Of a DNA stretch of 41,031 bases, positions 2,370 through 41,031 are shown one piece after another. Position 1 is the stretch's first letter. The number at the start of each line of letters is the position of its first letter. The position numbers were made by a program, and so were the translations under genes. The stretch comes from a virus, in the IMG/VR virus record IMGVR_UViG_3300028534_000009; one strand, 5' to 3'. Below the pieces are notes generated by a model. That model had not been told where the DNA came from and made no database searches. It saw nothing but the letters and a program-made list of their open reading frames with translations.

Positions 2370-2873
2370 TCACCTCCTTTCTGAGTTATTGAATTCTACA
2401 TAGTTATTTTCAGCTAACCAAATAACCATTTTAGCCAAAGCATTTGCTAAATTATTGTTAATACCTTCAGAAAAAAGAGAAACTGTTAAATTAACAGTAA
2501 TATTTCTTTCATAACTTATAGCACTTTTATTAATGATAAGATAGTAATAAAAAGGATCTTTTCTTAAAGAAGAAGGTAACCATTCTATTAATTCTCTTAC
2601 GGTTGGTGCTTTATATCTATCTATAGTAGTATTAGTTATTTTTACTTTGACATTTGCTTTTTCTAAAACTTGTTCCCATTTTTTAGCTTCTTTTTTTATT
2701 ATTTGTATTTCAGCATAGCTAAAATAAGCTAATTCTTTCTTTTCATAAGAAGTTGAATGTTTTAATTCAAGCCAATACCAACCACCACCATCTTGTGGAT
2801 AGCCAAGCTTTTTTAATTTTTTACATAATTCTAACCTTGGTACTTCTTTATAAATATCAAACATTTTAGACAC
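2370..2873 (-). CDS. Hypothetical protein in an AT-rich island
   Basis: 167-aa ORF, co-directional, overlapping the upstream gene by 8 nt. No motif recognised. Confidence 0.65.
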   Translation of the reverse strand: MSKMFDIYKEVPRLELCKKLKKLGYPQDGGGWYWLELKHSTSYEKKELAYFSYAEIQIIKKEAKKWEQVLEKANVKVKITNTTIDRYKAPTVRELIEWLPSSLRKDPFYYYLIINKSAISYERNITVNLTVSLFSEGINNNLANALAKMVIWLAENNYVEFNNSERR

Positions 2874-3234
2874 CTCTTTTGTAAAGCTCTTTGGCTGTTA
2901 GCTTGTAGAAACCAATGTCGCCTCTTTCGTGCATTCTTATAAGCTCGTCAAAGGTGTAAACTTTGTTTCCTGGTAATTCAAGGTTAATTTCGATTATCAA
3001 AACTTCGTCACTATCCTCGACTTTTACAGTTTCCTTGTTAACTTCAACGGGCAATTTAGTTAAAGCTGCCACTATTTTTGCAGTAGCCTTGTTATCAATC
3101 GCAGACTTAAAGTCAATTTTGCCGAACCACTTGTGCAATGTGTCGTCAAACTCGTCAAAGCCGATTTTGAACAGCTTAATCTTGCACGGGCACATAAACA
3201 TACTTGGGCTTAGTGAGTTAAGTAAGTATTTCAT
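2866..3234 (-). CDS. DUF1874 / STIV B116-like protein
   Basis: The start is trimmed to MKYLLNSLSPSMF (an ATGA overlap with the upstream stop, with GGAGGCTCACA upstream). The pattern YLLNSLSPSM...SAIDNKATAKIV...VKVEDSDEVLIIEINLELPGNKVYTFDELIRMHERGDIGFYKL parallels the B116 family as I recall it. Confidence 0.55.
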   Translation of the reverse strand: MKYLLNSLSPSMFMCPCKIKLFKIGFDEFDDTLHKWFGKIDFKSAIDNKATAKIVAALTKLPVEVNKETVKVEDSDEVLIIEINLELPGNKVYTFDELIRMHERGDIGFYKLTAKELYKRGV

Positions 3235-3506
3235 TGTGAGCCTCCTTTTATTTTTTGTTCTTCCCACATTTTTACTAACTTAAAGAACCCGTAAGCCTTC
3301 TTAATAGCAGTTTCTTTATCCATTCCTAAACACATTCCGTAATACACGAGGCACTCAAATAGCAATTGAAGAAATATCGTTATGTCAAAGTGCTTCCCTA
3401 AGCCTTCTTCGTAGAAGGCTAAGCTAAGCATAACTGCTTCCTTAATGTCGTAGTTGGGTTGGTTAATTTGCTGAATCATTTGCTTGGCTAATTCTAATAA
3501 GTTCAT
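3231..3506 (-). CDS. Hypothetical protein
   Basis: 91-aa ORF in the co-directional packed array. Confidence 0.6.
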   Translation of the reverse strand: MNLLELAKQMIQQINQPNYDIKEAVMLSLAFYEEGLGKHFDITIFLQLLFECLVYYGMCLGMDKETAIKKAYGFFKLVKMWEEQKIKGGSQ

Positions 3507-4555: not shown

Positions 4556-4870
4556 TTAAGTCCATATTTCGTATTCACCTACAAATTGCAATTTTCCTCT
4601 AAACTTTTTATCAAATTCTTTTGACTCTATTGCTTCCAAACCAACATCTTGCCATTCAAATTGTTTACTGTCCCAATAAATTATAATAACATCAAACCCT
4701 TTTATTCCTAAAAAATCTTTGTAAAAATAAGGCATGTACATATAAGGTTCTCTTTTTGTTTCTTCTTTGTAATACTTATAAACAAACCTGTCTAACTCTT
4801 TTCTACCTTCGTTTTCAAACCACTTTCTATCTAATACTCTTAATACATAAATGTGTCCATCAGCTCCCAT
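4556..4870 (-). CDS. Hypothetical protein
   Basis: 104-aa ORF with a GGAGGTAGCG SD. Confidence 0.6.
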   Translation of the reverse strand: MGADGHIYVLRVLDRKWFENEGRKELDRFVYKYYKEETKREPYMYMPYFYKDFLGIKGFDVIIIYWDSKQFEWQDVGLEAIESKEFDKKFRGKLQFVGEYEIWT

Positions 4871-4987: not shown

Positions 4988-5713
4988 TTACTTTTTTCTC
5001 ACCTTTAACTTTACCTTCCCATTGCTTTTAATCGTTACCCCACCATCTATCAATTCCCACTTAAACCTTCCAAAACCACCGTTCCTAAACTGAGAGATGC
5101 CAAGCAAGAAACCATAATCAAGCATTGACTTAATTTTCTCAAAGGTTAGCTCCTTATTTTCGATAAGCACAAGCTTGATTTCGTCAGTCGTTACTGGATT
5201 TTCTTCGCTTGCCTTGATACGCTCTGAAGCTACGAGAGTAACACGCTCACCCTGACGGGTCATACCTCTAAGAGGTCTTACATAGATGTCGTCTGGTTCT
5301 TTAATAAGTTCACCGTTGCGATAAAAGTGTATGTGATTAGGAAAAACAAACAGAAAACAGTCAATCTTTTTCTTGTAGGCTTTTAAACTGAGCTGGTCTT
5401 TAAGAGCCTGAGCTGCACTCTTGAAAAAGCCCTTAATCATAAAGTTGGGAATGTAAATAATTCCGTCTTTGTCTCTTCTAAAGTAAGTCATTCCAGAGAT
5501 TTCCTCGTTTTCTGGTGTATCGTAGTCTTCCTCGGTGTAAGACTCTTTAGTAAGTTCTTTGGCTTCATCTGGAATGTTTTCAATTTGCTCTTTAACTTCT
5601 TCTTGTTTCTTCTGAAAAAACTCTTTTTGTAAAAGCTCTTGGCTTGGTGCTGTTCCAAGTATGTCGCTAATAAAGGTAAGTTTAATCGTGTGCTCTAAGG
5701 TTTTGAAGTTCAT
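4988..5713 (-). CDS. Hypothetical protein (acidic N-terminal half, C-terminal GISQFRNGGFGRF motif)
   Basis: The start is trimmed to MNFKTLEH after AGGAGGGGAGGTT. Family not recognised. Confidence 0.65.
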   Translation of the reverse strand: MNFKTLEHTIKLTFISDILGTAPSQELLQKEFFQKKQEEVKEQIENIPDEAKELTKESYTEEDYDTPENEEISGMTYFRRDKDGIIYIPNFMIKGFFKSAAQALKDQLSLKAYKKKIDCFLFVFPNHIHFYRNGELIKEPDDIYVRPLRGMTRQGERVTLVASERIKASEENPVTTDEIKLVLIENKELTFEKIKSMLDYGFLLGISQFRNGGFGRFKWELIDGGVTIKSNGKVKLKVRKK

Positions 5714-5730
5714 AACCTCCCCTCCTATTC

Positions 5731-5931
5731 TTATTTTTTCAACATAATATGAGCACAAATTAACCCAGCTAAAATACCTTCGTGGAAACTTTTTGTTTTT
5801 TTAAGAGCATAATAAGGTGAGTACTCTTTAGGCAATTTTTCTTCTTTAAGCATTCTTTCGTACTTTTCGATTTCTGTTTTTTGCTCTTCTATAAATTGCT
5901 CCAATGCTTTAATGATTTCTTCCTTATTCAT
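5731..5931 (-). CDS. Hypothetical protein
   Basis: 66-aa ORF with a GGAGGC SD, overlapping its neighbours. Confidence 0.55.
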   Translation of the reverse strand: MNKEEIIKALEQFIEEQKTEIEKYERMLKEEKLPKEYSPYYALKKTKSFHEGILAGLICAHIMLKK

Positions 5932-6169
5932 TGTATGCCTCCTTTAAGAGTTTGAAGTAAACCATTTCTATTTCGTTTTCAAAGTAGCAAGGTACAAATT
6001 CACCTATTAAATTGACGGCTTTGAGAAGTAAGTCTATTTTTTGATAGTCAATGTGTTTTTCTTGTAATTCGTCTTTTATTGCTTTAGTAACACCTAATAA
6101 AGCGTGATAAACCTGCAACATCTTTTCTGAATCGTTTTGTAGCTTTTCTTCAATGTCTCGTTTCGTCAT
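5924..6169 (-). CDS. Hypothetical protein
   Basis: 81-aa ORF with a GGAGGAAAG SD. Confidence 0.55.
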   Translation of the reverse strand: MTKRDIEEKLQNDSEKMLQVYHALLGVTKAIKDELQEKHIDYQKIDLLLKAVNLIGEFVPCYFENEIEMVYFKLLKEAYNE

Positions 6170-6182
6170 AATCTTTCCTCCT

Positions 6183-6470
6183 TTAAGAAATGTATAGTTT
6201 TATTTTGATAAGTTTTTCTTCTTTTTCTGGTACCCAAAATTCTAACCTATGACATTCAATAAATCCGTCAAAAATGCTTCCAATTTCTCTAGTTTGGTAA
6301 ATGTTAGGATAATCAATGTATAAAGTAACGATAGCGTTTTTAAGTCCTCTTATAAGTTTTTGTTTGTTTTTAAGATTTGTTATGCTAAGTAAAAAGTCGT
6401 TTTCGTTTCTATCATAATTCGTTGATATTTGTAACCACATCTCCTCGTTAATTTCCCACAGTTTTTTCAT
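6183..6470 (-). CDS. Hypothetical protein
   Basis: 95-aa ORF with a GGAGGTGAG SD. Confidence 0.55.
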   Translation of the reverse strand: MKKLWEINEEMWLQISTNYDRNENDFLLSITNLKNKQKLIRGLKNAIVTLYIDYPNIYQTREIGSIFDGFIECHRLEFWVPEKEEKLIKIKLYIS

Positions 6471-6654
6471 TGTTTCTCACCTCCTTTTCAATCTTTGGTA
6501 TGAGGTGCCTTAATCTCCATACGAATCTTTTAGCCAGCTCCTCTTCGTAGAAAATCTCAGACACCTCAAAAGCGTCAATTGTAGGAGCAAAAAGGTCGTC
6601 TTTGATAAGAATAATGTATTTTCCGTTATTGCTCTTTTTTACTTCTGCTATCAT
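6448..6654 (-). CDS. Hypothetical protein
   Basis: 68-aa ORF with a GGAGGGTG SD. Confidence 0.55.
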   Translation of the reverse strand: MIAEVKKSNNGKYIILIKDDLFAPTIDAFEVSEIFYEEELAKRFVWRLRHLIPKIEKEVRNNEKTVGN

Positions 6655-6833
6655 TATTCACCCTCCTTGTAGTTGTCTCCGTACAAGGCTTCAAGGTAAT
6701 CGTCATAAGTAACACCATCAATCCAACCAGTTCCATCGCAAAGATAGCATTCTGGGTCGTCTCCGTCGCACTCAGGACAGCGGTGTAAAAGTATATCCTC
6801 TTCATTCCTTATTAGCTCTTTTGCAAAAAACAT
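6654..6833 (-). CDS. Small zinc-ribbon protein (CxxC...CxxCxGxG)
   Basis: Contains HRCPECDGDDPECYLCDGTGW. The start is trimmed to the ATG after GGAGGTGGTAATT. Confidence 0.55.
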   Translation of the reverse strand: MFFAKELIRNEEDILLHRCPECDGDDPECYLCDGTGWIDGVTYDDYLEALYGDNYKEGE

Positions 6834-6849
6834 AATTACCACCTCCTTT

Positions 6850-7224
6850 TTATAAGGTTGTATAACTATCCAAAATTTTTGCGTAAAAGAGTTTTAATAT
6901 TCCATCACGGTGTAAAGCGTAGTACTGAATGTCGTTTAACTCGTTTAGCTCTGGATAGTCAGGGACTTTTACGATTAAAAACTCGTCTCCCTTATTAGGA
7001 ATTATCGTCGGCTCGTAATTGTGTTCGCAGAGATTGACGGTGGTAAGAGCAAAAACAACCCTTTTAATAAGAGAAGAATGAATAGAATGCTTAAAGTCGG
7101 ATAAGTACTCCCACTCACGAAGCCTCTTAGAAAATTGAGGGATGATAAGAGAAACGATGTTACACTTATAATGACAATCCTCTAGAAACTCAAAAAACTT
7201 GTCTGATTCTATGAGATACTTCAT
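6850..7224 (-). CDS. Hypothetical protein
   Basis: The start is trimmed to MKYLIESD after AGGAGGGGAGGCAAAG. Confidence 0.6.
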   Translation of the reverse strand: MKYLIESDKFFEFLEDCHYKCNIVSLIIPQFSKRLREWEYLSDFKHSIHSSLIKRVVFALTTVNLCEHNYEPTIIPNKGDEFLIVKVPDYPELNELNDIQYYALHRDGILKLFYAKILDSYTTL

Positions 7225-8071: not shown

Positions 8072-8365
8072 TTATTCTGATGGTATTATTGCAGTAAAAA
8101 TGTAGTATTTTTGTTCGTTAATAATAAGGATTTTTGTATGTACAGGTTGAAAAATTAAATAAGCTTCAAGTTTTTTGCTTTGTTTTACTTCTTTTTTGAG
8201 TTCTTCTAAATTAACAGATTCAAAAGTTTTAAAATTTCTTATGTTTTTATCAATAGACAAATTTAAAATTTTCATTACAGCTCTTTTATTAAGTTTATAA
8301 AAGCCTTCGTCAATTTTGGTTGCTGTAGTATGTGAGGCTTCTACATACAAATCAACTTTTTTCAT
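8072..8365 (-). CDS. Hypothetical protein in an AT-rich island
   Basis: 97-aa ORF with a GGAGGTAAAAAA SD, overlapping the ferredoxin stop. Confidence 0.6.
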   Translation of the reverse strand: MKKVDLYVEASHTTATKIDEGFYKLNKRAVMKILNLSIDKNIRNFKTFESVNLEELKKEVKQSKKLEAYLIFQPVHTKILIINEQKYYIFTAIIPSE

Positions 8366-8592
8366 TTTTTTACCTCCTTAAATGTGATTGCTTTATTGCT
8401 ACATACCTTTAGACAATTAAGACACTTGACGCACTTATGTTTGAACCATCGAGGTGGATCGTGAAGGTTTGAAATGTGAAGAGCGTCGTGGGGACAGGAG
8501 TCAACGCAGGAAAAACAGCGTATGCATAACGAGTCTTCAATCGTGCGTGTAAAACCCTGAAACTTGTAGTCTTCTTCAGACCAGAAACACAT
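8362..8592 (-). CDS. 2x[4Fe-4S] ferredoxin-type protein
   Basis: Two CxxCxxCxxxC motifs: CIRCFSCVDSCP and CVKCLNCLKVCS. GGAGGTGTCG SD upstream. Confidence 0.8.
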   Translation of the reverse strand: MCFWSEEDYKFQGFTRTIEDSLCIRCFSCVDSCPHDALHISNLHDPPRWFKHKCVKCLNCLKVCSNKAITFKEVKK

Positions 8593-9257: not shown

Positions 9258-9503
9258 TTATTTTTTAGAAATTTCAATGTAAGGATAGATGTAAAAACCG
9301 CCTTTTACATCCCCTCCACCGTAAATCCGAATGCACTTTTTGGTTTCTATAACATCACCGCTTCTAAAAGAAGCATACTTTCTCGATGTAAAACCGAACT
9401 TAAGTCCATGTTTTTCTGCAAATTCACAGGCTTTTTGTTTATTAAAGCCTCTACCGTCAAAAACTTCTCTTTTAATTAACTCAATTAATTGTTTTGCTTT
9501 CAT
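9258..9503 (-). CDS. Hypothetical protein, first gene of the leftward arm
   Basis: 81-aa ORF with a GGAGGGAAGAAA SD. Confidence 0.6.
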   Translation of the reverse strand: MKAKQLIELIKREVFDGRGFNKQKACEFAEKHGLKFGFTSRKYASFRSGDVIETKKCIRIYGGGDVKGGFYIYPYIEISKK

Positions 9504-9688
9504 TTTCTTCCCTCCTTTTTGATTTTTTTCTTTTTCATTCTACAACTAACATTAACCCAAAACTCCATTTTTGTCAAACTCTAAAATCCACCATTAACAC
9601 TAATTATCCCAACAAAACCAAACCTAAGCTCTATCTTTCTAACTTTTTCGCTATTTTTCACGATTTTTACACCAGCTTCAACCCTTTG

Positions 9689-9716
9689 TTGACTAAGTCA
9701 CTAAAGAAAAGATAGT
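9689..9716 (+). promoter_or_regulatory. Candidate sigma70-type promoter TTGACT-16-GATAGT facing into the non-coding hub
   Basis: It has the same -35 hexamer and 16-nt spacer as the three plus-arm promoters. No ORF follows. A weak hairpin plus T5 lies at 9790-9811. Confidence 0.3.
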
Positions 9717-9900
9717 TGAAGTCTAACTCCTCATTTATCTTTAATTTTCGTGAAACCCGCATTATTTCTGGCTTAGCAGGAATTTTTGAGGCTTAATAAA
9801 GCCACCTTTTTGTAAAAAACAAAGTTCTATTGTAAAAAGATTTCGTTTTATAATAGCAATCGCGCAAACAAGTTTTACAGGGTTTATACTACCTCAAAAA

Positions 9901-10430
9901 TTCCGTGGAACACCGATGAATTCTAGGGTGCACGCTCACGAAAGTCGAGGTGTCTATCGTGTCACTTTTCTAAAATTCGTGTCTCCGTTCTAGCCCGCAT
10001 TATTCCTAGTATTGAGTTCTAATTGTAATTAAGATTCAGTTTCAGTTTAAAGTGGGGAATTTTTACCCAATTCTAGGAAGTGCTGATTACATCTAGGGTG
10101 CACGAAAATCAAAGAAAGTAACACATAATTCTATGGTTACAGTGATTCGTGACACGCTTCCGTGGAACACCGATGGTTCCTTGGATTGAGCTTGGTAATT
10201 CTATTGTTTAGTGAAGAATTTGGTTTAGTTAATTAATGGATAAAGTAGATTTGCTGGGAGCTAGGGCTGGTGCTGGCTAGATGGGAATTTATTTTTGTCA
10301 AGAAAGGCGTGGAACATTTCTCAGTTTTTGGAGCTGGAAGCCGTTCCGTGGAACACGCATAAATGCTGGGTTTCGAGCGCTGTGCGGTCGCCGTGCCTTT
10401 TGACGCCGTGTTACGAACCAGCGTGGAACA
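9901..10430 (+). repeat. Iteron-like array of five same-orientation CGTGGAACA copies
   Basis: Copies start at 9904, 10161, 10308, 10347 and 10422. Those at 9901-9918 and 10158-10175 are identical 18-mers TTCCGTGGAACACCGATG. They are interleaved with TCTAGGGTGCACG (9922, 10092) and CGTG(T/A)CAC (9958, 10148). Confidence 0.85.
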
Positions 10431-11007
10431 CTTCTGGTGGCACGATCCTATCATAACGGAGCGATTGAGACTCAATTGCGGTGTTACTCTTGGTCTGCTT
10501 TTATATTAATGTTGAGCTTAGTTAGTACTTACTTTCGTTTTATTGAATGGGGTTTTGGGTTTTATGGGGTTTTTGTCTTTATTATTTTTTTGTTTTTTCT
10601 TTAATGGGTCTTTCCCTTTATTAATTTTGCTTTACTAGTTTTTGCTTTAAGCGTTTCTGAAATTACCCTCTAATAGCCCCAGATTTGCCCTTATTTGCCT
10701 TTTAACTTTGCGGGCTAATGGTTTATACTTGCCTTAATCTTAAAGGGCCTTATAAGCCAAATTTGAGTCTATTTTCCCCTTTAGCCACCAGACATTTTGT
10801 TTGCACTCGAGCCTTTGATTCTCAGTCGCATTCGCAAAAGCATTCTTGCTCGCTTAAGCATTCTTACCTTGCCTTGATTGAACGCTTTTGATTCTGAGTC
10901 TGAGTCGCAGTCGCCTGGAGCAGGCGTTGGAACTTTGGCTGGCTGATGGATGTGGGCTTCACCTCTCCCCCCCCCAGGAGAATTTTAAACTATGCAAAGA
11001 GGGGTTG

Positions 11008-11058
11008 TTAAGGGGAGAATCCCCTTAAACTTGACTAAATAAAGAAGTAAGCTAAAAT
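11008..11058 (+). promoter_or_regulatory. Promoter P1 (TTGACT 11031-11036, 16-nt spacer, TAAAAT 11053-11058) preceded by the palindrome TTAAGGGG-N5-CCCCTTAA
   Basis: Read directly. It lies 29 nt upstream of the first rightward ORF (11087). Confidence 0.6.
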
Positions 11059-11086
11059 AATAAAAAAGAGCGCGGAGGGGAAGTGT

Positions 11087-12841: not shown

Positions 12842-12955
12842 TTAGCCCAGGAGCCAGCCTCCCCTCCACCCTGCCTCCCTCTTCCAGGTGCCACCTCCTC
12901 TCTGGGCTTCTGGGCACCCATTTCCAACCACCAAGCCACCAACCACCCAAGCAAA
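12842..12955 (+). terminator. C-rich, G-poor tract, a possible rut site / Rho-dependent terminator after the portal gene
   Basis: By hand count about 54 C against 17 G in about 114 nt. It contains the tandem CCAACCACCAAGC / CCAACCACCCAAGC (12924-12952), then a G9 run (12956-12964). Confidence 0.3.
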
Positions 12956-12967
12956 GGGGGGGGGTTG

Positions 12968-13018
12968 ATAAGGGGGTACTCCCCCTTATATTGACTTTTT
13001 CTATTTTTGTGCTATAAA
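12968..13018 (+). promoter_or_regulatory. Promoter P2 (TTGACT 12991-12996, 16-nt spacer, TGcTATAAA to 13018) preceded by the palindrome ATAAGGGGG-N4-CCCCCTTAT
   Basis: Read directly. It is nearly identical to P3 across about 38 nt and has an extended -10 TG. Confidence 0.65.
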
Positions 13019-13154
13019 ACTTAATAAGATGGAAAACAAAGTGAAGCTGGCGATAGAAAGTGGGGTTAAGGCGGAAGGGAAGAATAACAAGGTTTCATGT
13101 GCCAGAGCCGTTGTTTGTGAGAAGACGCAAGAAGTATAACCGAAAGAAGAAAAG

Positions 13155-13265
13155 CCCAGCCCAGCCGAAACTAACTAGGAGGTAGTCGAGATGGCAAGAA
13201 GGAAGCACAGGAAAAAGAAAAGAGGACGCAAGTAACTAACCTCTGATGAGGACGGCTGGGCTGGG
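13155..13265 (+). repeat. Perfect 13-bp GC-rich inverted repeat (CCCAGCCCAGCCG / CGGCTGGGCTGGG) enclosing an SD and a 14-codon ORF
   Basis: The arms at 13155-13167 and 13253-13265 are exact reverse complements. Confidence 0.9.
13191..13235 (+). CDS. Micro-ORF encoding MARRKHRKKKRGRK (14 aa, 11 basic)
   Basis: AGGAGGTAGTCGAG precedes the ATG. The ORF lies inside the 13-bp inverted repeat in the leader of the 13308 operon. Translation is unproven. Confidence 0.35.
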   Translation: MARRKHRKKKRGRK

Positions 13266-13307
13266 TGTTGAAAGTTTAGATAAAAAGCTGAAAAGGAGGT
13301 TTAGCAA

Positions 13308-32630: not shown

Positions 32631-34391
32631 ATGAAGCTACTTGAAAAGTTTTTGTTATTCTTAGCTAATAGTTGGGTTGCTACTAAGGACTACGGTTTAA
32701 TCAAACTGCATCCGTCTAAGCTTTTTGGTTCTCAGAAAAAACTCATAAAGGACATATTTGAAGAATTAGCTAAAGGTTCAGCAAGAAGAAACTTTGTTAT
32801 TCTTAAAGCAAGGCAGTTAGGAATAACGACGATAACTGAGCTTATTGACTTGTTCTGGGCACAAATCCATAAGGGAATTAAGATTGCTTTCTTGTGTCAG
32901 GATTACACGATGAAGCTTCACTACAGAAGAGACTTAGGTGTTATTTATTCCAGCCTGCCCAAGCACTTTAAGATGCCTTTAGTAAGCGACAGCAGAGAAG
33001 CTTTGGTGTTTAAAAACGGTTCTTCTATTATGTTCTTTCACGAGCCTAAAAAAGGAGCTAAAGAAATTGTTAGAGGGCAGGCTATTACCTGTCTTCACTC
33101 TACAGAAACAGCTTTCTACGAAAACTTTGAACGAATAAAGGGTGGCTTGCTTCCTGCGTTATCAGAAGAACATCCTGCAAGGTATGTTATCTACGAGAGC
33201 ACGGCTAATGGTTTTAACCACTTCTACGACTTGTGGCACACTGCTGAAAACGGTGTTACTTATAAGCCAATATTTCTTGGTTGGTGGTTAAAGGAAAGCT
33301 ATCGTATTGACCCAGAAAAACAGCCTGAACTATGGGAAGTTTACTCTTATCGTCCTAATAGAGATGAGCGTCTAAGGATGCAAATGGTTAAGAAACTTTA
33401 CGGTTACGAGCTTACTCTTGAGCAGCTTGCTTGGTGGAGAATGAAGCTGTTTGAAGAGTTTAACGGTGATGAGGAATTAATGCTACAGGAATATCCTTTT
33501 ACCGCTGAAGATGCTTTCAGGTATACTGGTAACCAGTTTATTAAACCACAGGTGTTAATGGAGATTAAGAAAAACATACTTGAGATTAAGCCCCACTATT
33601 ATCTCGTTCAGTTTCCTGACTACAACATGATGGTCGTTAGAGACGGCAATTCAAGGAAGTACAACTTAAAAATATGGGAATATCCTGTTAGAGGAGAAAT
33701 TTATTTCCTTGGAGCTGATCCGAGCTATGGTGCTAATCCTGACAGCGACTTTGCCTGCGTTAGCGTATGGAGAGTTGACTGGCAGGAAGACGGAGCAAAA
33801 CTAGTGCAGGTAGCAGAGTTTGGTGAAAGAGAGTGCGATGTTATTAACTTTGCTAAAGTGTGCTTGTGGCTAACGACTATTTATAACGGAGGCTATTTTA
33901 ACCTTGAAGTTACTGGTCCAGGGCTTGCAGTTGTTAGAGAGATTGACAGATATAAGGCAAACAACTTCAACATTGGTGAAATAAAGGTAATGAGCAAGCG
34001 TCCTGAAGCTGAGCACTTGACCCAGTATGTCAGAATGATTAACGAGTATGTTTACTGGAGAGCAGATAGGCTTCGTCCTGGTGGTGGGGTCAGGCACTTC
34101 AAAACAATAGGAGAAGAACGAGTTAAAGGGCTATTCTTACTCAAGTCTCTTATAGAAAACAAGGTTGTTATTCCTCGTTCAGACGACCTGTTAGAGCAGC
34201 TAAAATACATGAGCATAGACGACAGCGGAGTTCCGAGAAGTTTTGGTCCCAACGACGACCTGGTCTTTGGAGCAATGCTTGCAGTAGAGTACTTCAATCA
34301 GATGCTACCTTATCTTCCTAAAAGGAAACAAAAAGAACTTTCAAGACAGGAAGCACTTCAGAACATTGCCAAGTCTGTATTGATACAATAA
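32631..34391 (+). CDS. terL: Terminase large subunit
   Basis: VILKARQLGITT (Walker A-like), ITCLHSTETAF (Walker B region), YESTANGFNHFY (coupling motif) and LGADPSYG...DFACVSVW (nuclease-domain Asp). 586 aa. Confidence 0.8.
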   Translation: MKLLEKFLLFLANSWVATKDYGLIKLHPSKLFGSQKKLIKDIFEELAKGSARRNFVILKARQLGITTITELIDLFWAQIHKGIKIAFLCQDYTMKLHYRRDLGVIYSSLPKHFKMPLVSDSREALVFKNGSSIMFFHEPKKGAKEIVRGQAITCLHSTETAFYENFERIKGGLLPALSEEHPARYVIYESTANGFNHFYDLWHTAENGVTYKPIFLGWWLKESYRIDPEKQPELWEVYSYRPNRDERLRMQMVKKLYGYELTLEQLAWWRMKLFEEFNGDEELMLQEYPFTAEDAFRYTGNQFIKPQVLMEIKKNILEIKPHYYLVQFPDYNMMVVRDGNSRKYNLKIWEYPVRGEIYFLGADPSYGANPDSDFACVSVWRVDWQEDGAKLVQVAEFGERECDVINFAKVCLWLTTIYNGGYFNLEVTGPGLAVVREIDRYKANNFNIGEIKVMSKRPEAEHLTQYVRMINEYVYWRADRLRPGGGVRHFKTIGEERVKGLFLLKSLIENKVVIPRSDDLLEQLKYMSIDDSGVPRSFGPNDDLVFGAMLAVEYFNQMLPYLPKRKQKELSRQEALQNIAKSVLIQ

Positions 34392-34397
34392 AAATGA

Positions 34398-34470
34398 CAA
34401 GGCGGGCAGGATTCGAACCTGCATCTCTCGGATTTGGAATCCGAGGCTCTACCAATTGAGCTACCGCCTT
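34398..34470 (-). tRNA. tRNA-Trp (anticodon CCA)
   Basis: Folded by hand. Acceptor AAGGCGG/CCGCCTT; D-arm GCTC-AATTGGTA-GAGC; anticodon arm TCGGA-TTCCAAA-TCCGA (U33-CCA-A37); variable loop GAGAT; T-arm GCAGG-TTCGAAT-CCTGC; discriminator G. CCA is not encoded. Confidence 0.9.
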
Positions 34471-34567
34471 AAACCCCCTCCTGTGTTTGTGAGTGGAGAG
34501 GCTGTTCTGGGTTGTAATGGGCATGCCCTTGGGTATAACACGGTGCACCGTGGGAGCTCCAATAATA

Positions 34568-38865: not shown

Positions 38866-40269
38866 TTATCTAGTTTCTTTTCTCATCTGCTCAAGTATTC
38901 TTCTTATCTCTTTTTCAAGGCTGATAGGAAGAATGTTTTTAAGAGGACAATCCTCAGTAGCTTGAATCTTGTTTAACACTTTCGTTACCAATGTGTCAAC
39001 TTTTGCTATTTTCCACTCTGGAAAGGTTACTATCATTTGTCTTATAATTAATTCCTCGTCGTCTATCAAGCCTTTTTCGATGTCCTCTTTAGTAATTACC
39101 TCTTCCATTCTACCTTCTACTACTTCTTTTTCCTGCTCAGTTAGTGGTCGCTGATAGAAAGTGTCGTCGTTTTCTTTAACCACTTCAAAACCAAGTTTTT
39201 TAACGAGAATGTTTTTAACGATGTAGTCGTTCAAGTACTGCTTGTAAATTTTAAGTGCAGACTGGATAAGCAGGTGAATTGCAACCTCGTTTAGCTTAAC
39301 CTTATCTTCCTCTACCAGCAAAGTAAATATTGCATAACGGAGATTCTCGTAAAAAACTCTTCTATCTCTAGTGAAGTTAGTGGTGCTTTTAATAACGACA
39401 AAGTTCCGAATGATGTTAACATACTCGGGTCTATCGTAGTAATTATTTAGTTTTTCTCTTAAGTTATATTTATCGTAAAGATATTGCCAAAATGCGTAAA
39501 AGTGCCCCTGCTTAAGAAGGACGCCGATGTCAATGCCAGCCCTTGAACAAAAAAGCTGTCTGAACTTAGAGTAGTTTATCATGTCTGCTGGAATTTCTAT
39601 CTTGGTCTTATTCGTGTCTATCAAGAAAGTTAATCCTCTGTGAGAATAGAAGCAGGAGATGTCCCGGATGCCGAGTCGCTCTTCTATTATCTTGTAGCTA
39701 TCTTCTGTTAGATCAAGGTCTTTTAGAATGTCGTGGACATAATTTTCTCTCGTGATGTCGTAGATGGAAGCAAGCTCTCTTTCAGGGTTAATGTAAACGA
39801 TAAGGTAGCAACCTTCACCGTGCTTGGGACAGGTATAGAGCTTGTAGCCGTCACCCTCGTGTATCTCTGAGGAAAGTTTCTCTAATAAAGGAAGTTGAAG
39901 AAAAACCTTGTGACTGAAAACCTTTGGTTTGATTACGATGAACGGGTCAAACAGGTAGCCGTAGCGTTCGATGAGGTTGGGATAGCGTTCAAGCACATCT
40001 GAAAGGTGCATCACTTGAGGCTTCCACAATCCAAACTTTCTTGCTATGATTCTAACCATCTTTTCTGATAAAGGGAAAGAAGGAATACAAATGTAGTAGC
40101 CCCTGTTGGTCTTGTTGGTTCTTTTCTCGTAAGGCTTGATTACTTTGCTCTTGTTAGGGAAAAAGTCTGCTTTAAAGACGAAACAGGTTTTGGTAGGCAA
40201 GTCTTCGTAGTGTGCGTCCAGCATAAACACGGGTTCCTTTTTTGGTGCATTATTTTCTTGTTGCATCAT
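38866..40269 (-). CDS. Large orphan protein (467 aa), a candidate replication initiator or primase by context only
   Basis: The start is trimmed to MMQQENN after AAAGGAGGAATAATG. It lies between the XPD-like helicase gene and the nuclease/UvrD genes. No motif recognised. Confidence 0.6.
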   Translation of the reverse strand: MMQQENNAPKKEPVFMLDAHYEDLPTKTCFVFKADFFPNKSKVIKPYEKRTNKTNRGYYICIPSFPLSEKMVRIIARKFGLWKPQVMHLSDVLERYPNLIERYGYLFDPFIVIKPKVFSHKVFLQLPLLEKLSSEIHEGDGYKLYTCPKHGEGCYLIVYINPERELASIYDITRENYVHDILKDLDLTEDSYKIIEERLGIRDISCFYSHRGLTFLIDTNKTKIEIPADMINYSKFRQLFCSRAGIDIGVLLKQGHFYAFWQYLYDKYNLREKLNNYYDRPEYVNIIRNFVVIKSTTNFTRDRRVFYENLRYAIFTLLVEEDKVKLNEVAIHLLIQSALKIYKQYLNDYIVKNILVKKLGFEVVKENDDTFYQRPLTEQEKEVVEGRMEEVITKEDIEKGLIDDEELIIRQMIVTFPEWKIAKVDTLVTKVLNKIQATEDCPLKNILPISLEKEIRRILEQMRKETR

Positions 40270-40279
40270 TATTCCTCCT

Positions 40280-41031
40280 TTAAATGTCTTTCGTTGAGTT
40301 AAGCAGTTTGACTCGTTGTCTGAACCACAACGGAAAGAAGCTCTTGCGTTGCATGTAGAGTTCATAAGCCCCACCGTCTAACACATAAGTGGTGCAGTAG
40401 TCGTCCTCACTTCTCGTGCCTCTACCAGAACCTTGCACGAGATTGATTGCCTCTAAGTAATTATACCATAACTCCCCTTTCTTACCAAATGCGTAGAGCT
40501 TGGTCGAGGTGTACTTGTCAAGCCCTGGTTTTGGACTCTTGGCAAAAATGATAAACCTGCAAAGGTCTCCTTTAAAGTCAAAGCCTCTCACAACAGCAGG
40601 ACTGATAAGAACAGCGTTCTTGCGTTTCTTGAACTCTCTTAACACATCGTAAACGCTACCGCCTTCGTGAAGAATAACCCTGTCTTTAAATGCCCAAGCA
40701 ATTTTCTTTGCACGATTGTAGCTAACGGAGTGAATAATTCCTCTTTCGTTTGCGTGCTTCTTGAGAATCTTTTCAATAAGAGGAAGAGTAAGTTTGTCAA
40801 AGTAGTGGCTTTCGTTTTGCTTGGTTAAGATAGGCAAAGACTCGAATAACAAGACGGGGCTTCTTTCAGGGTCAAATACGGAAGAGATTTCTAAAGAAGC
40901 AATAGCATTTAAGGGGACATCGTAAAGAAGGCTGAACATAATTCCGTCTGGTAGGGTAGCAGATGTTAAGACGAATTCTTTTCCTTTAACCCAGAAGTCT
41001 TCTGCGTAGTACTGAAACTTGAGCCAGAAGG
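40280..41031 (-). CDS. XPD/DinG-family helicase, C-terminal part (continues from 1..890 across the junction)
   Basis: The ORF is open to the window end. IHSVSYNRAKKI...VLISPAVVRGFDFKGDLCRFIIFAKSPKP...QGSGRGTRSEDDY fits helicase motifs V and VI (QxxGRxxR). The stop is at 40280. Confidence 0.8.
   Translation of the reverse strand, partial: FWLKFQYYAEDFWVKGKEFVLTSATLPDGIMFSLLYDVPLNAIASLEISSVFDPERSPVLLFESLPILTKQNESHYFDKLTLPLIEKILKKHANERGIIHSVSYNRAKKIAWAFKDRVILHEGGSVYDVLREFKKRKNAVLISPAVVRGFDFKGDLCRFIIFAKSPKPGLDKYTSTKLYAFGKKGELWYNYLEAINLVQGSGRGTRSEDDYCTTYVLDGGAYELYMQRKSFFPLWFRQRVKLLNSTKDI
40905..41031. repeat. Terminal direct repeat copy 2, identical to 1..127
   Basis: Read base by base. Confidence 0.95.

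Follow-up and report, generated by a model that had tools for sequence, protein, structure and literature searches.

A gene-free, repeat-dense hub between the divergent gene arms of an uncultured phage is a candidate replication origin and early/late switch region

The window analyzed here, the 41,031-nt stretch of IMG/VR virus record IMGVR_UViG_3300028534_000009, is a whole phage contig in which the genes run outward in two arms from a 1.58-kb region at positions 9504 to 11086, referred to below as the hub. An earlier note on this DNA (the original prediction) described the hub as free of genes and dense in short repeats, which raises the question of what it does for the phage. The reading placed first, and held tentatively, is that the hub combines a replication origin with the region at which early and late genes diverge, built on an array of binding sites.

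The hub and its repeat array

Only two open reading frames (ORFs) of at least 60 amino acids (aa) occur in the hub, both with TTG starts, and no Shine-Dalgarno (SD) sequence was found before the short hub ORFs. The phage's long genes served to train a 3-periodic Markov model; applied to 120-nt windows in the best of six frames, it scored the hub at a mean of −4.3 and a maximum of 0.9, compared with a mean of 8.8 and a 5th percentile of 2.4 for coding windows; all hub windows fell under the 5th percentile of coding windows. The hub is noncoding, and its description as an ORF-free stretch of about 1.58 kb holds. The accompanying statement that spacers elsewhere measure 0 to 50 nt was wrong: positions 12842 to 13307 form another gene-free gap, of 466 nt, and these two regions are the sole long noncoding stretches in the genome.

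The repeats center on the word CGTGGAACA. Five exact copies start at 9904, 10161, 10308, 10347, and 10422, all on the plus strand and within 530 nt, and no further exact copy was found anywhere else in the 41 kb, for which chance would supply an estimated 0.3 copies on both strands. The five same-orientation copies of the original prediction were thus confirmed in position and are exclusive to the hub, and the identical 18-mer reported around two of them is present (TTCCGTGGAACACCGATG, twice). Start-to-start spacing is irregular (257, 147, 39, and 75 nt). The lesser repeats listed with them, TCTAGGGTGCACG (two copies), CCCGCATTATT (two copies, nowhere else in the window), and the pairs on the right side of the hub, are likewise all present and unique to it. 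CGTG/CACG occurs 16 times in 9751 to 10500 against about 2.3 expected at the genome rate, an approximately sevenfold enrichment. The core motif site has a palindromic extension, TTCC-GT-GGAA, with CGTG(A/T)CAC(G) palindromes close by, and an inverted repeat (GGAATTTTTGAGG and CCTCAAAAATTCC) encloses the TATAAT at 9849 and reaches as far as the first CGTGGAACA copy. The T-rich, A-poor tract that had been pointed out is real; it lies 70 nt downstream of the last core motif copy and contains the most T-rich 100 nt of the genome (10551 to 10650; 62% T, 12% A). Cumulative GC skew, a check that the original prediction had proposed, reaches its minimum at the core. Checking dismissed a long repeat with a 257-nt period that had been suspected in the core, GGA was not enriched as a CsrA sponge would have it, and sigma-54 and DnaA-box readings of the motif misfit by eye in spacing and key positions.

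A portal-profile scan of metagenomes supplied 42 loci for comparison. One of these, L036, belongs to a phage with 28 to 30% portal identity to the window and carries a 1.5-kb gene-free hub (5562 to 7082) between divergent arms. Midway along that hub stand six copies of [CT]GTGG[AG]ACA[CT], all on the plus strand, including a 14-mer (GCTTCCGTGGAACA) identical to that of the window. At least three GTG[GA]AAC words within 600 nt were present only in the window and L036 among 43 portal-related loci, and no alignable sequence beyond the motif was found between the two hubs. A motif conserved in sequence, orientation, and position within surroundings that are not conserved marks a functional site. 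The repeats thus amount to more than a random grouping, and hubs of this gene-free type are conserved in the phage lineage; because a distant relative keeps the motif array in the same place, the hub is judged to be a genuine, composite control region. The original prediction had been made to depend on the repeats being kept in related genomes, and the motif array is kept in the L036 hub.

The early arm of the L036 phage was rebuilt from a second locus, L246, which overlaps L036 by 293 identical bases. This phage encodes a 910-aa PrimPol-DUF927 protein that has no window counterpart. The early proteins that the window has in common with the L036 phage number just two, a B116-like protein and a Vipr-like RAMP of 256 aa, and the structural/packaging module is the most shared part. 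A cis-element that holds the same place and orientation in two phages with approximately 30% portal identity and different replication proteins suggests a conserved trans-factor. Two other repeats were seen in L036: GGCTT repeated five times in 5-nt phase at 4700 to 4749, in a 400-nt gap of the early arm, and a CACTCGAT tandem array at 6500 to 6565, in the hub.

At the nucleotide level, a BLAST search of the hub against INPHARED phages gave no match, and BLAST and nhmmer searches against 45 related loci returned the short motif only. The TTCCGTGGAACACCGATG 18-mer had one match in IMG/VR (L001), judged to be chance. No alignable nucleotide-level relative that would allow a covariation test was found, a point counted against the proposal that the hub encodes a large structured noncoding RNA. 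The length of the hub, its noncoding status, and promoter-like sites pointing inward would suit such an RNA. A scan of the window with the Rfam 15 covariance models gave no hub match at the gathering score or E ≤ 10, the best hub match being put at an E value of 0.86. Folding of 120-nt windows on both strands against dinucleotide shuffles gave z-scores of −3.0 to +2.3 with one marginal window, that is, no thermodynamic RNA-structure signal. Most of the hub is also A/T-rich, unlike the structured RNAs of thermophiles. Neither Rfam nor the folding z-scores lend support to the structured-RNA reading put forward originally, which is considered extremely improbable.

Replication origin and early/late switch

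We infer that the core is bound by protein, that the hub acts as an origin, and that the DNA unwinds at the T tract, in the following layout. The core (approximately 9900 to 10450) would be an array of one-orientation binding sites of the form (TTC)CGTGGAACAC, joined by related GTAACAC and CGTG-palindrome sites. The binding factor may come from the host or be among the few proteins shared with the L036 phage. Once bound beside the G+C-rich island, it would help to open the neighboring T-rich tract (10500 to 10660), and the outward promoters at both edges would fire the two arms, the rightward one (11031 to 11058) being preceded by a hairpin/operator. For assays of replication, binding, and small RNAs, the hub makes a defined target of 0.5 kb that can be cloned.

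Arrays in related loci provide part of the support for an origin, which is circumstantial. In L016, approximately 25 AGTAACA(C) repeats run from inside the 3′ end of a PrimPol-PriCT_1-AAA_25 gene and give way to an A/T-rich tract and, beyond it, a T/C-rich one. In L003, a helicase homologous to that of L016 is followed by TTGAAAC repeats. These two arrays look like textbook initiator-adjacent iteron origins, and GTGGAACAAGA repeats similarly follow an AAA_25-winged helix-turn-helix (wHTH) gene in L183. The P4 alpha/ori-crr and SaPI rep-ori regions are initiator-adjacent iteron origins of similar style. What the window shares with the iteron origins beside primase/helicase-wHTH genes in L016, L003, and L183 is the succession of short G-AAC-A-type direct repeats and an A/T- or T-rich tract, its own T-rich tract resembling the T/C-rich tract after the L016 iterons. 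The GTAACAC 7-mer, of which the window core has three copies, forms dense arrays in L016 and L037, the latter with 18 copies in a 1.26-kb gene-free gap. The window differs in that its repeats are few, widely spaced, and irregular, do not lie beside an initiator gene, and occur in a genome that encodes no AAA_25 or PrimPol protein. Gene-free gaps of more than 1 kb were also present in L005, L033, L037, and L042, and those of L005, L033, and L037 are dense in their own repeat families. The 1.5-kb gap of L005 contains a 258-nt tandem duplication (1651 to 2166; 86% mean column identity in a MAFFT alignment, 75% ungapped), each copy of which combines TATCTTTACA repeats, present in both orientations, with a T/C-rich tract and a poly-C run.

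A further precedent comes from the ceduoviruses of Lactococcus, in which the origin is a noncoding region between divergent early and late modules and works on a plasmid without phage proteins (PMC7150918). As in the hub, the c2, bIL67, and 923 types of ceduovirus origin lie between divergent modules, lack ORFs and ribosome binding sites, and are flanked by promoters; their sequence varies between phage subgroups while their position is kept (PMC7150918). The hub differs in being approximately 1.6 kb long, in belonging to an unrelated host and phage lineage, and in its parS-half-like repeat array, of which the c2 origin is not known to have a counterpart. An origin combined with a switch region is ranked first, if with some hesitation, because of where the hub lies, the T-rich tract beside it, the arrays next to initiator genes in relatives, and this precedent.

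The original prediction saw in the hub the layout of an iteron-controlled origin. One part of that stands: direct repeats of one short sequence are clustered, an A/T-rich element adjoins them (10500 to 10650, 26% G+C), and the skew minimum coincides. The other part does not, and the points that follow weigh against an origin. The spacing of the repeats is not regular or helically phased. No PrimPol, AAA_25, Rep, or DnaA-like protein was recognized as a cognate initiator among the scanned ORFs, and no homologue of the L016 initiator was found in the window. The GC-skew minimum is also the point at which transcription diverges, and skew cannot separate replication from transcription. The window and the motif-sharing L036 phage are without a common initiator, and because their only shared early proteins are the Vipr-like RAMP and the B116-like protein, a model of iterons bound by a phage initiator leaves the identity of the motif in two phages unexplained. 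The origin model also does not say what binds the motif.

Promoter-like sites are oriented outward at both hub flanks, and some are oriented inward. The promoter scan recovered the TTGACT-16-GATAGT site of the original prediction, pointing into the hub; the "perfect TATAAT" at 9849 was absent from the promoter-like scan output and has no usable −35 sequence by eye. No clear terminators were identified in the hub. On the right, a hairpin (11010 to 11026) precedes a promoter (11031 to 11058) in a module upstream of a 64-aa gene and the portal gene, both of which it putatively drives. This module and a near-verbatim copy in the 466-nt gap share the consensus GCAAAG-Grun-TTGWTAAGGGG-N4/5-CCCCTTA-N3-TTGACT with TAAAAT 16 nt on. 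Because of this recurrence at 12950 to 13020, the right edge of the hub is best read as an ordinary promoter region, though an elaborately regulated one. A poly-C run was considered as a lineage-wide feature and proved inconsistent among relatives, and alignment of the right edge with the upstream region of L003 left just one CTCCCCCCAG-like word in common. On the minus strand, the 466-nt gap also has a TGG-rich tract (12895 to 12950; TRF period 7 to 8, CCAACCA).

The position of the core between divergent promoters would also fit an array of operator or regulatory sites for the early/late switch, bound for example by the B116-like protein, with no role in replication. The palindromic extension of the motif and the nearby CGTG(A/T)CAC(G) palindromes agree with this, as does the presence of a B116-like protein in the window, the L036 phage, and L037. 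STIV B116 has been described as a DNA-binding protein. Three IMG/VR contigs (L218, L224, and L240; 38 to 43% G+C) carry cassettes of four to six CGTGGAACA copies on one strand at several places per contig, mostly between ORFs, the distribution to be expected of promoter- or operator-associated sites. The sites in the window are far for operators, however, at 600 to 1100 nt from the rightward promoter and 400 to 900 nt from the left gene start, and to our knowledge, B116 binding has not been reported as sequence specific. A purely regulatory array is regarded as distinctly unlikely.

RNA-guided system, host ParB, or terminase

The shared RAMP directs attention to the VIPR systems, which pair a RAMP with an accessory DNA-binding or enzymatic protein (bioRxiv 10.64898/2026.04.26.720920). 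Their guides (vrRNA) are approximately 100 nt long, consist of 9 to 16 YNNGG units and a constant 3′ tail, and are kept in long intergenic regions (bioRxiv 10.64898/2026.04.26.720920). A profile built from 53 sequences matched type VII Cas7 (E value, 5e−5), Csm4 (2.5e−4), and the deposited SUSP1 Vipr protein (0.03). An AlphaFold2 (AF2) model from the same alignment reached a predicted local distance difference test (pLDDT) score of 89.3 and was used in place of a single-sequence model, which was unusable (pLDDT, 36). All Foldseek matches of the model were to Cas7, Csm3, or Cas7-11 (probability, 1.00). Profile and model together place the 256-aa protein among the Cas7-like RAMPs, in the Vipr family. 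B116-like genes adjoin the Vipr-like gene in L037 (3031 to 3363) and L246 (19361 to 19867), and the B116-like gene may be a VIPR accessory (vap) gene of this clade.

The core could accordingly be asked to serve as the RNA locus of a noncanonical VIPR system without the GGY/NN pentanucleotide code, a possible but unlikely reading. Spelled out, in a version that is no likelier, rightward transcription would yield one or more small RNAs whose constant part, CGTGGAACAC(CGATG), is bound by the RAMP, with the B116-like protein as DNA-binding accessory. The likeness lies in a phage genome with a Cas7-like minimal RAMP, a candidate DNA-binding accessory, and long noncoding regions with same-strand repeats, the hub and the 466-nt gap being the only such long stretches available. 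A search of portal-related loci, L246 and L248 among them, located the RAMP gene in the phages of the window, L036, and L037 and in no other; the hubs of all three are dense in repeats. The two motif-sharing phages have no early protein in common other than the RAMP and the B116-like protein. All 11 motif copies of both phages are on one strand. It is this co-occurrence of the RAMP gene with the hubs and the strictly single-stranded motif that keep the idea alive.

The defining feature of a vrRNA is absent, however: no tract of at least five GG-phased pentanucleotide units occurs in the window (both strands), L037, L246, or L036, and the best 50-nt windows, with 5 of 10 units, lie outside the hub. 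As to a constant tail, a same-strand 10- to 18-mer recurs every 39 to 257 nt, and no conserved fold emerged. Instead of flanking the RAMP gene, the hub is 3.7 kb away from it, and the gaps beside that gene measure approximately 120 nt or less; the hub also lacks a thermodynamic structure signal and clear terminators. The RAMP family is large (1193 clusters at 50% identity), so its co-occurrence with hubs may be chance; P0127 and P0128, two of the close homologues, are 52 to 58% identical to the window protein. If the factor were the shared RAMP, VIPR RNA-guided systems would be extended to a different RNA grammar.

Were the factor encoded by the host, two phages could have the motif in common without having an initiator in common, and ParB is one candidate. 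Read on the opposite strand, CGTGGAACA becomes TGTTCCACG, which is a half of the conserved parS site (halves TGTTCCAC and GTGGAACA), and the GTGGAAC(A) core word and the GTGAAAC variant correspond to the two common parS half-sites of chromosomes. A B. subtilis parS (TGTTCCACGTGAAACA) is in use in ParB studies, and P. aeruginosa ParB has been reported to bind the half-parS heptamers GTTCCAC and GTTTCAC (PMC5961200, PMC10419367). Six copies of this heptamer pair, the GTGAAAC variant included, lie in one orientation in 9750 to 10430. By this account, the array would capture host ParB through half-parS sites for episome maintenance, compaction, or titration, and no integrase was seen among the ORFs scanned. 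Arrays mixing GTGGAACA and GTGAAACA were also found beside housekeeping genes in distant bacterial phyla and in unrelated viral contigs.

The resemblance to parS is nevertheless a post hoc match of a 7- to 8-nt word, which is weak evidence. The 16-bp parS palindrome (TGTTNCACGTGNAACA) had no match with up to two mismatches in the window; two matches with three mismatches, a chance-level number, lie outside the hub. Only the base adjoining the half-site fits parS, and the window copies are direct, not inverted. No ParA or ParB was found in the phage, and a search of the phage loci for the ParB box II motif was negative. ParB capture is given a low probability. Should the factor be a host protein, such as ParB or an initiator, the phage would be using a short array of sites to borrow a host system for organizing or replicating DNA.

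Scans of IMG/VR and GTDB with the motif gave many matches, which are strongly ascertainment biased since they were selected by the motif itself; the chromosomal arrays so found have unrelated housekeeping genes as neighbors. Approximately 15 IMG/VR contigs with about 50% G+C (L215, L217, L220, L226 to L228, L230, L232, L235, L236, L239, and L241 to L244) share a block, CCCGTGGAACACCGATGGATGCTGGGGATTTCCGTGGAACAGG, that contains the 16-mer CGTGGAACACCGATGG as in the window copy at 10161. This family had no match among annotated phages, and the block may be coding in those contigs.

The same scans bear on packaging, one of the alternatives left by the original prediction. An array that serves as a terminase recognition (pac/cosB-like) site would be in keeping with the structural/packaging module as what the window and the L036 phage share most. 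One weak analogy exists in L082, where a small terminase gene of the Sf6 type has five CGTGGAACA copies directly after it, although L082 was retrieved by the motif search itself. The large terminase (TerL) and candidate small subunit of the phage are encoded 21 kb from the hub, and a packaging site is considered very improbable.

Genome context and feature coordinates

An exact 127-nt direct repeat at the contig ends (1 to 127 and 40905 to 41031) indicates a circular assembly, and a DinG/Rad3-like helicase gene (C-terminal part, 40280 to 40939) appears to span the junction. The leftward arm runs from 9503 to 500 and then past the junction from 40939 to 34576; it encodes a Sak4-like protein, UvrD-like and DinG-like helicases, PD-(D/E)XK and ERCC4 nucleases, MazG, and the STIV-B116-like protein. 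The rightward arm (11087 to 34391) encodes the portal, holin and M15 peptidase, major head protein, and TerL (32631 to 34391). Features of the hub and related elements are collected in Table 1.

Table 1. Positions of the repeats, promoter elements, and genes discussed in the text
Feature	Position	Strand	Basis or remark
Core motif copy 1, 18-mer TTCCGTGGAACACCGATG	9901–9918	+	Exact repeat
Core motif copy 2, identical 18-mer TTCCGTGGAACACCGATG	10158–10175	+	Exact repeat
Core motif copy 3, CGTGGAACA(T)	10308–10316	+	Exact match
Core motif copy 4, TTCCGTGGAACAC	10344–10356	+	Exact match
Core motif copy 5, CGTGGAACAC	10422–10431	+	Exact match
Variant core motif copy, CGTGAAAC	9749–9756	+	Motif search; other common parS half-site form
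TCTAGGGTGCACG pair, in CTAGG/AATTCTA-rich family	9922 and 10092 (9922–10104)	+	Exact repeat, found nowhere else
Three GTAACAC copies	10118, 10408, 10481 (span 10118–10487)	+, −, −	7-mer search
Inverted repeat GGAATTTTTGAGG/CCTCAAAAATTCC	9779–9904		13/13 inside 25-nt pair, 80% complementary
Left hub segment, A/C-rich, G-poor on plus strand	9504–9860		Bias as in leftward arm; GC skew −0.5 to −0.8 in 9450–9750
Weak hairpin and T run	9790–9812	+	
Repeat core	~9900–10450		Closes in G+C-rich island
G+C-rich island, three core motif copies	10275–10500		51–54% G+C vs 38% genome mean
T-rich, A-poor tract, candidate unwinding element	10500–10660	+	26% G+C
Repeat pair GCYTTTGATTCTSAGTC...GCA	10811 and 10884 (block 10811–10909)	+	Direct-repeat search
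Repeat pair TCGCWWAAGCATTCTT	10832 and 10850	+	Direct-repeat search
Promoter-like TTGACT-16-GATAGT	9689–9716	+	Promoter scan
C9 run	10967–10975	+	G9 run holds matching place before second promoter module
Rightward promoter module	10993–11058	+	GCAAAG, G run, TTGTTAAGGGG-N5-CCCCTTA, then TTGACT-16-TAAAAT
Second promoter module copy, near-verbatim	12950–13020	+	Hairpin 12970–12987, TTGACT; in 466-nt gap after portal gene
G9 run	12956–12964		Before hairpin of second promoter module
Low-complexity TTG ORF	9494–9715	+	ORF list
TTG ORF	10233–10475	−	ORF list
256-aa Cas7-like RAMP, Vipr family	4988–5758	−	Profile and structure model; PHROG 4652, "unknown function"
STIV B116-like protein	2866–3267	−	Common to L036 phage and L037

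A tRNA scan of the window identified a single tRNA, tRNA-Trp with G73 (34396 to 34471). The host is probably a bacterium, because of this G73, strong SD sequences, and lysis genes. The closest portal relatives are just 26 to 37% identical and come from metagenomes and bins of metagenome-assembled genomes that are hot-spring-like in appearance; the lineage is uncultured and apparently thermophilic. A second contig retrieved for the same phage (L002) was 100% identical to the window and hence carries no polymorphism information.

Two genes of the leftward arm stood out. A 467-aa orphan (38866 to 40269, minus strand) in the replication arm is flanked by two helicase genes; a search of 5.8 billion clustered proteins found no homologue of it, and Pfam, PHROG, NCBIfam, and PDB sequences gave no match either. 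In the early arm, a 76-aa 4Fe-4S dicluster ferredoxin-like gene (8362 to 8592, minus strand) is unusual cargo for a phage.

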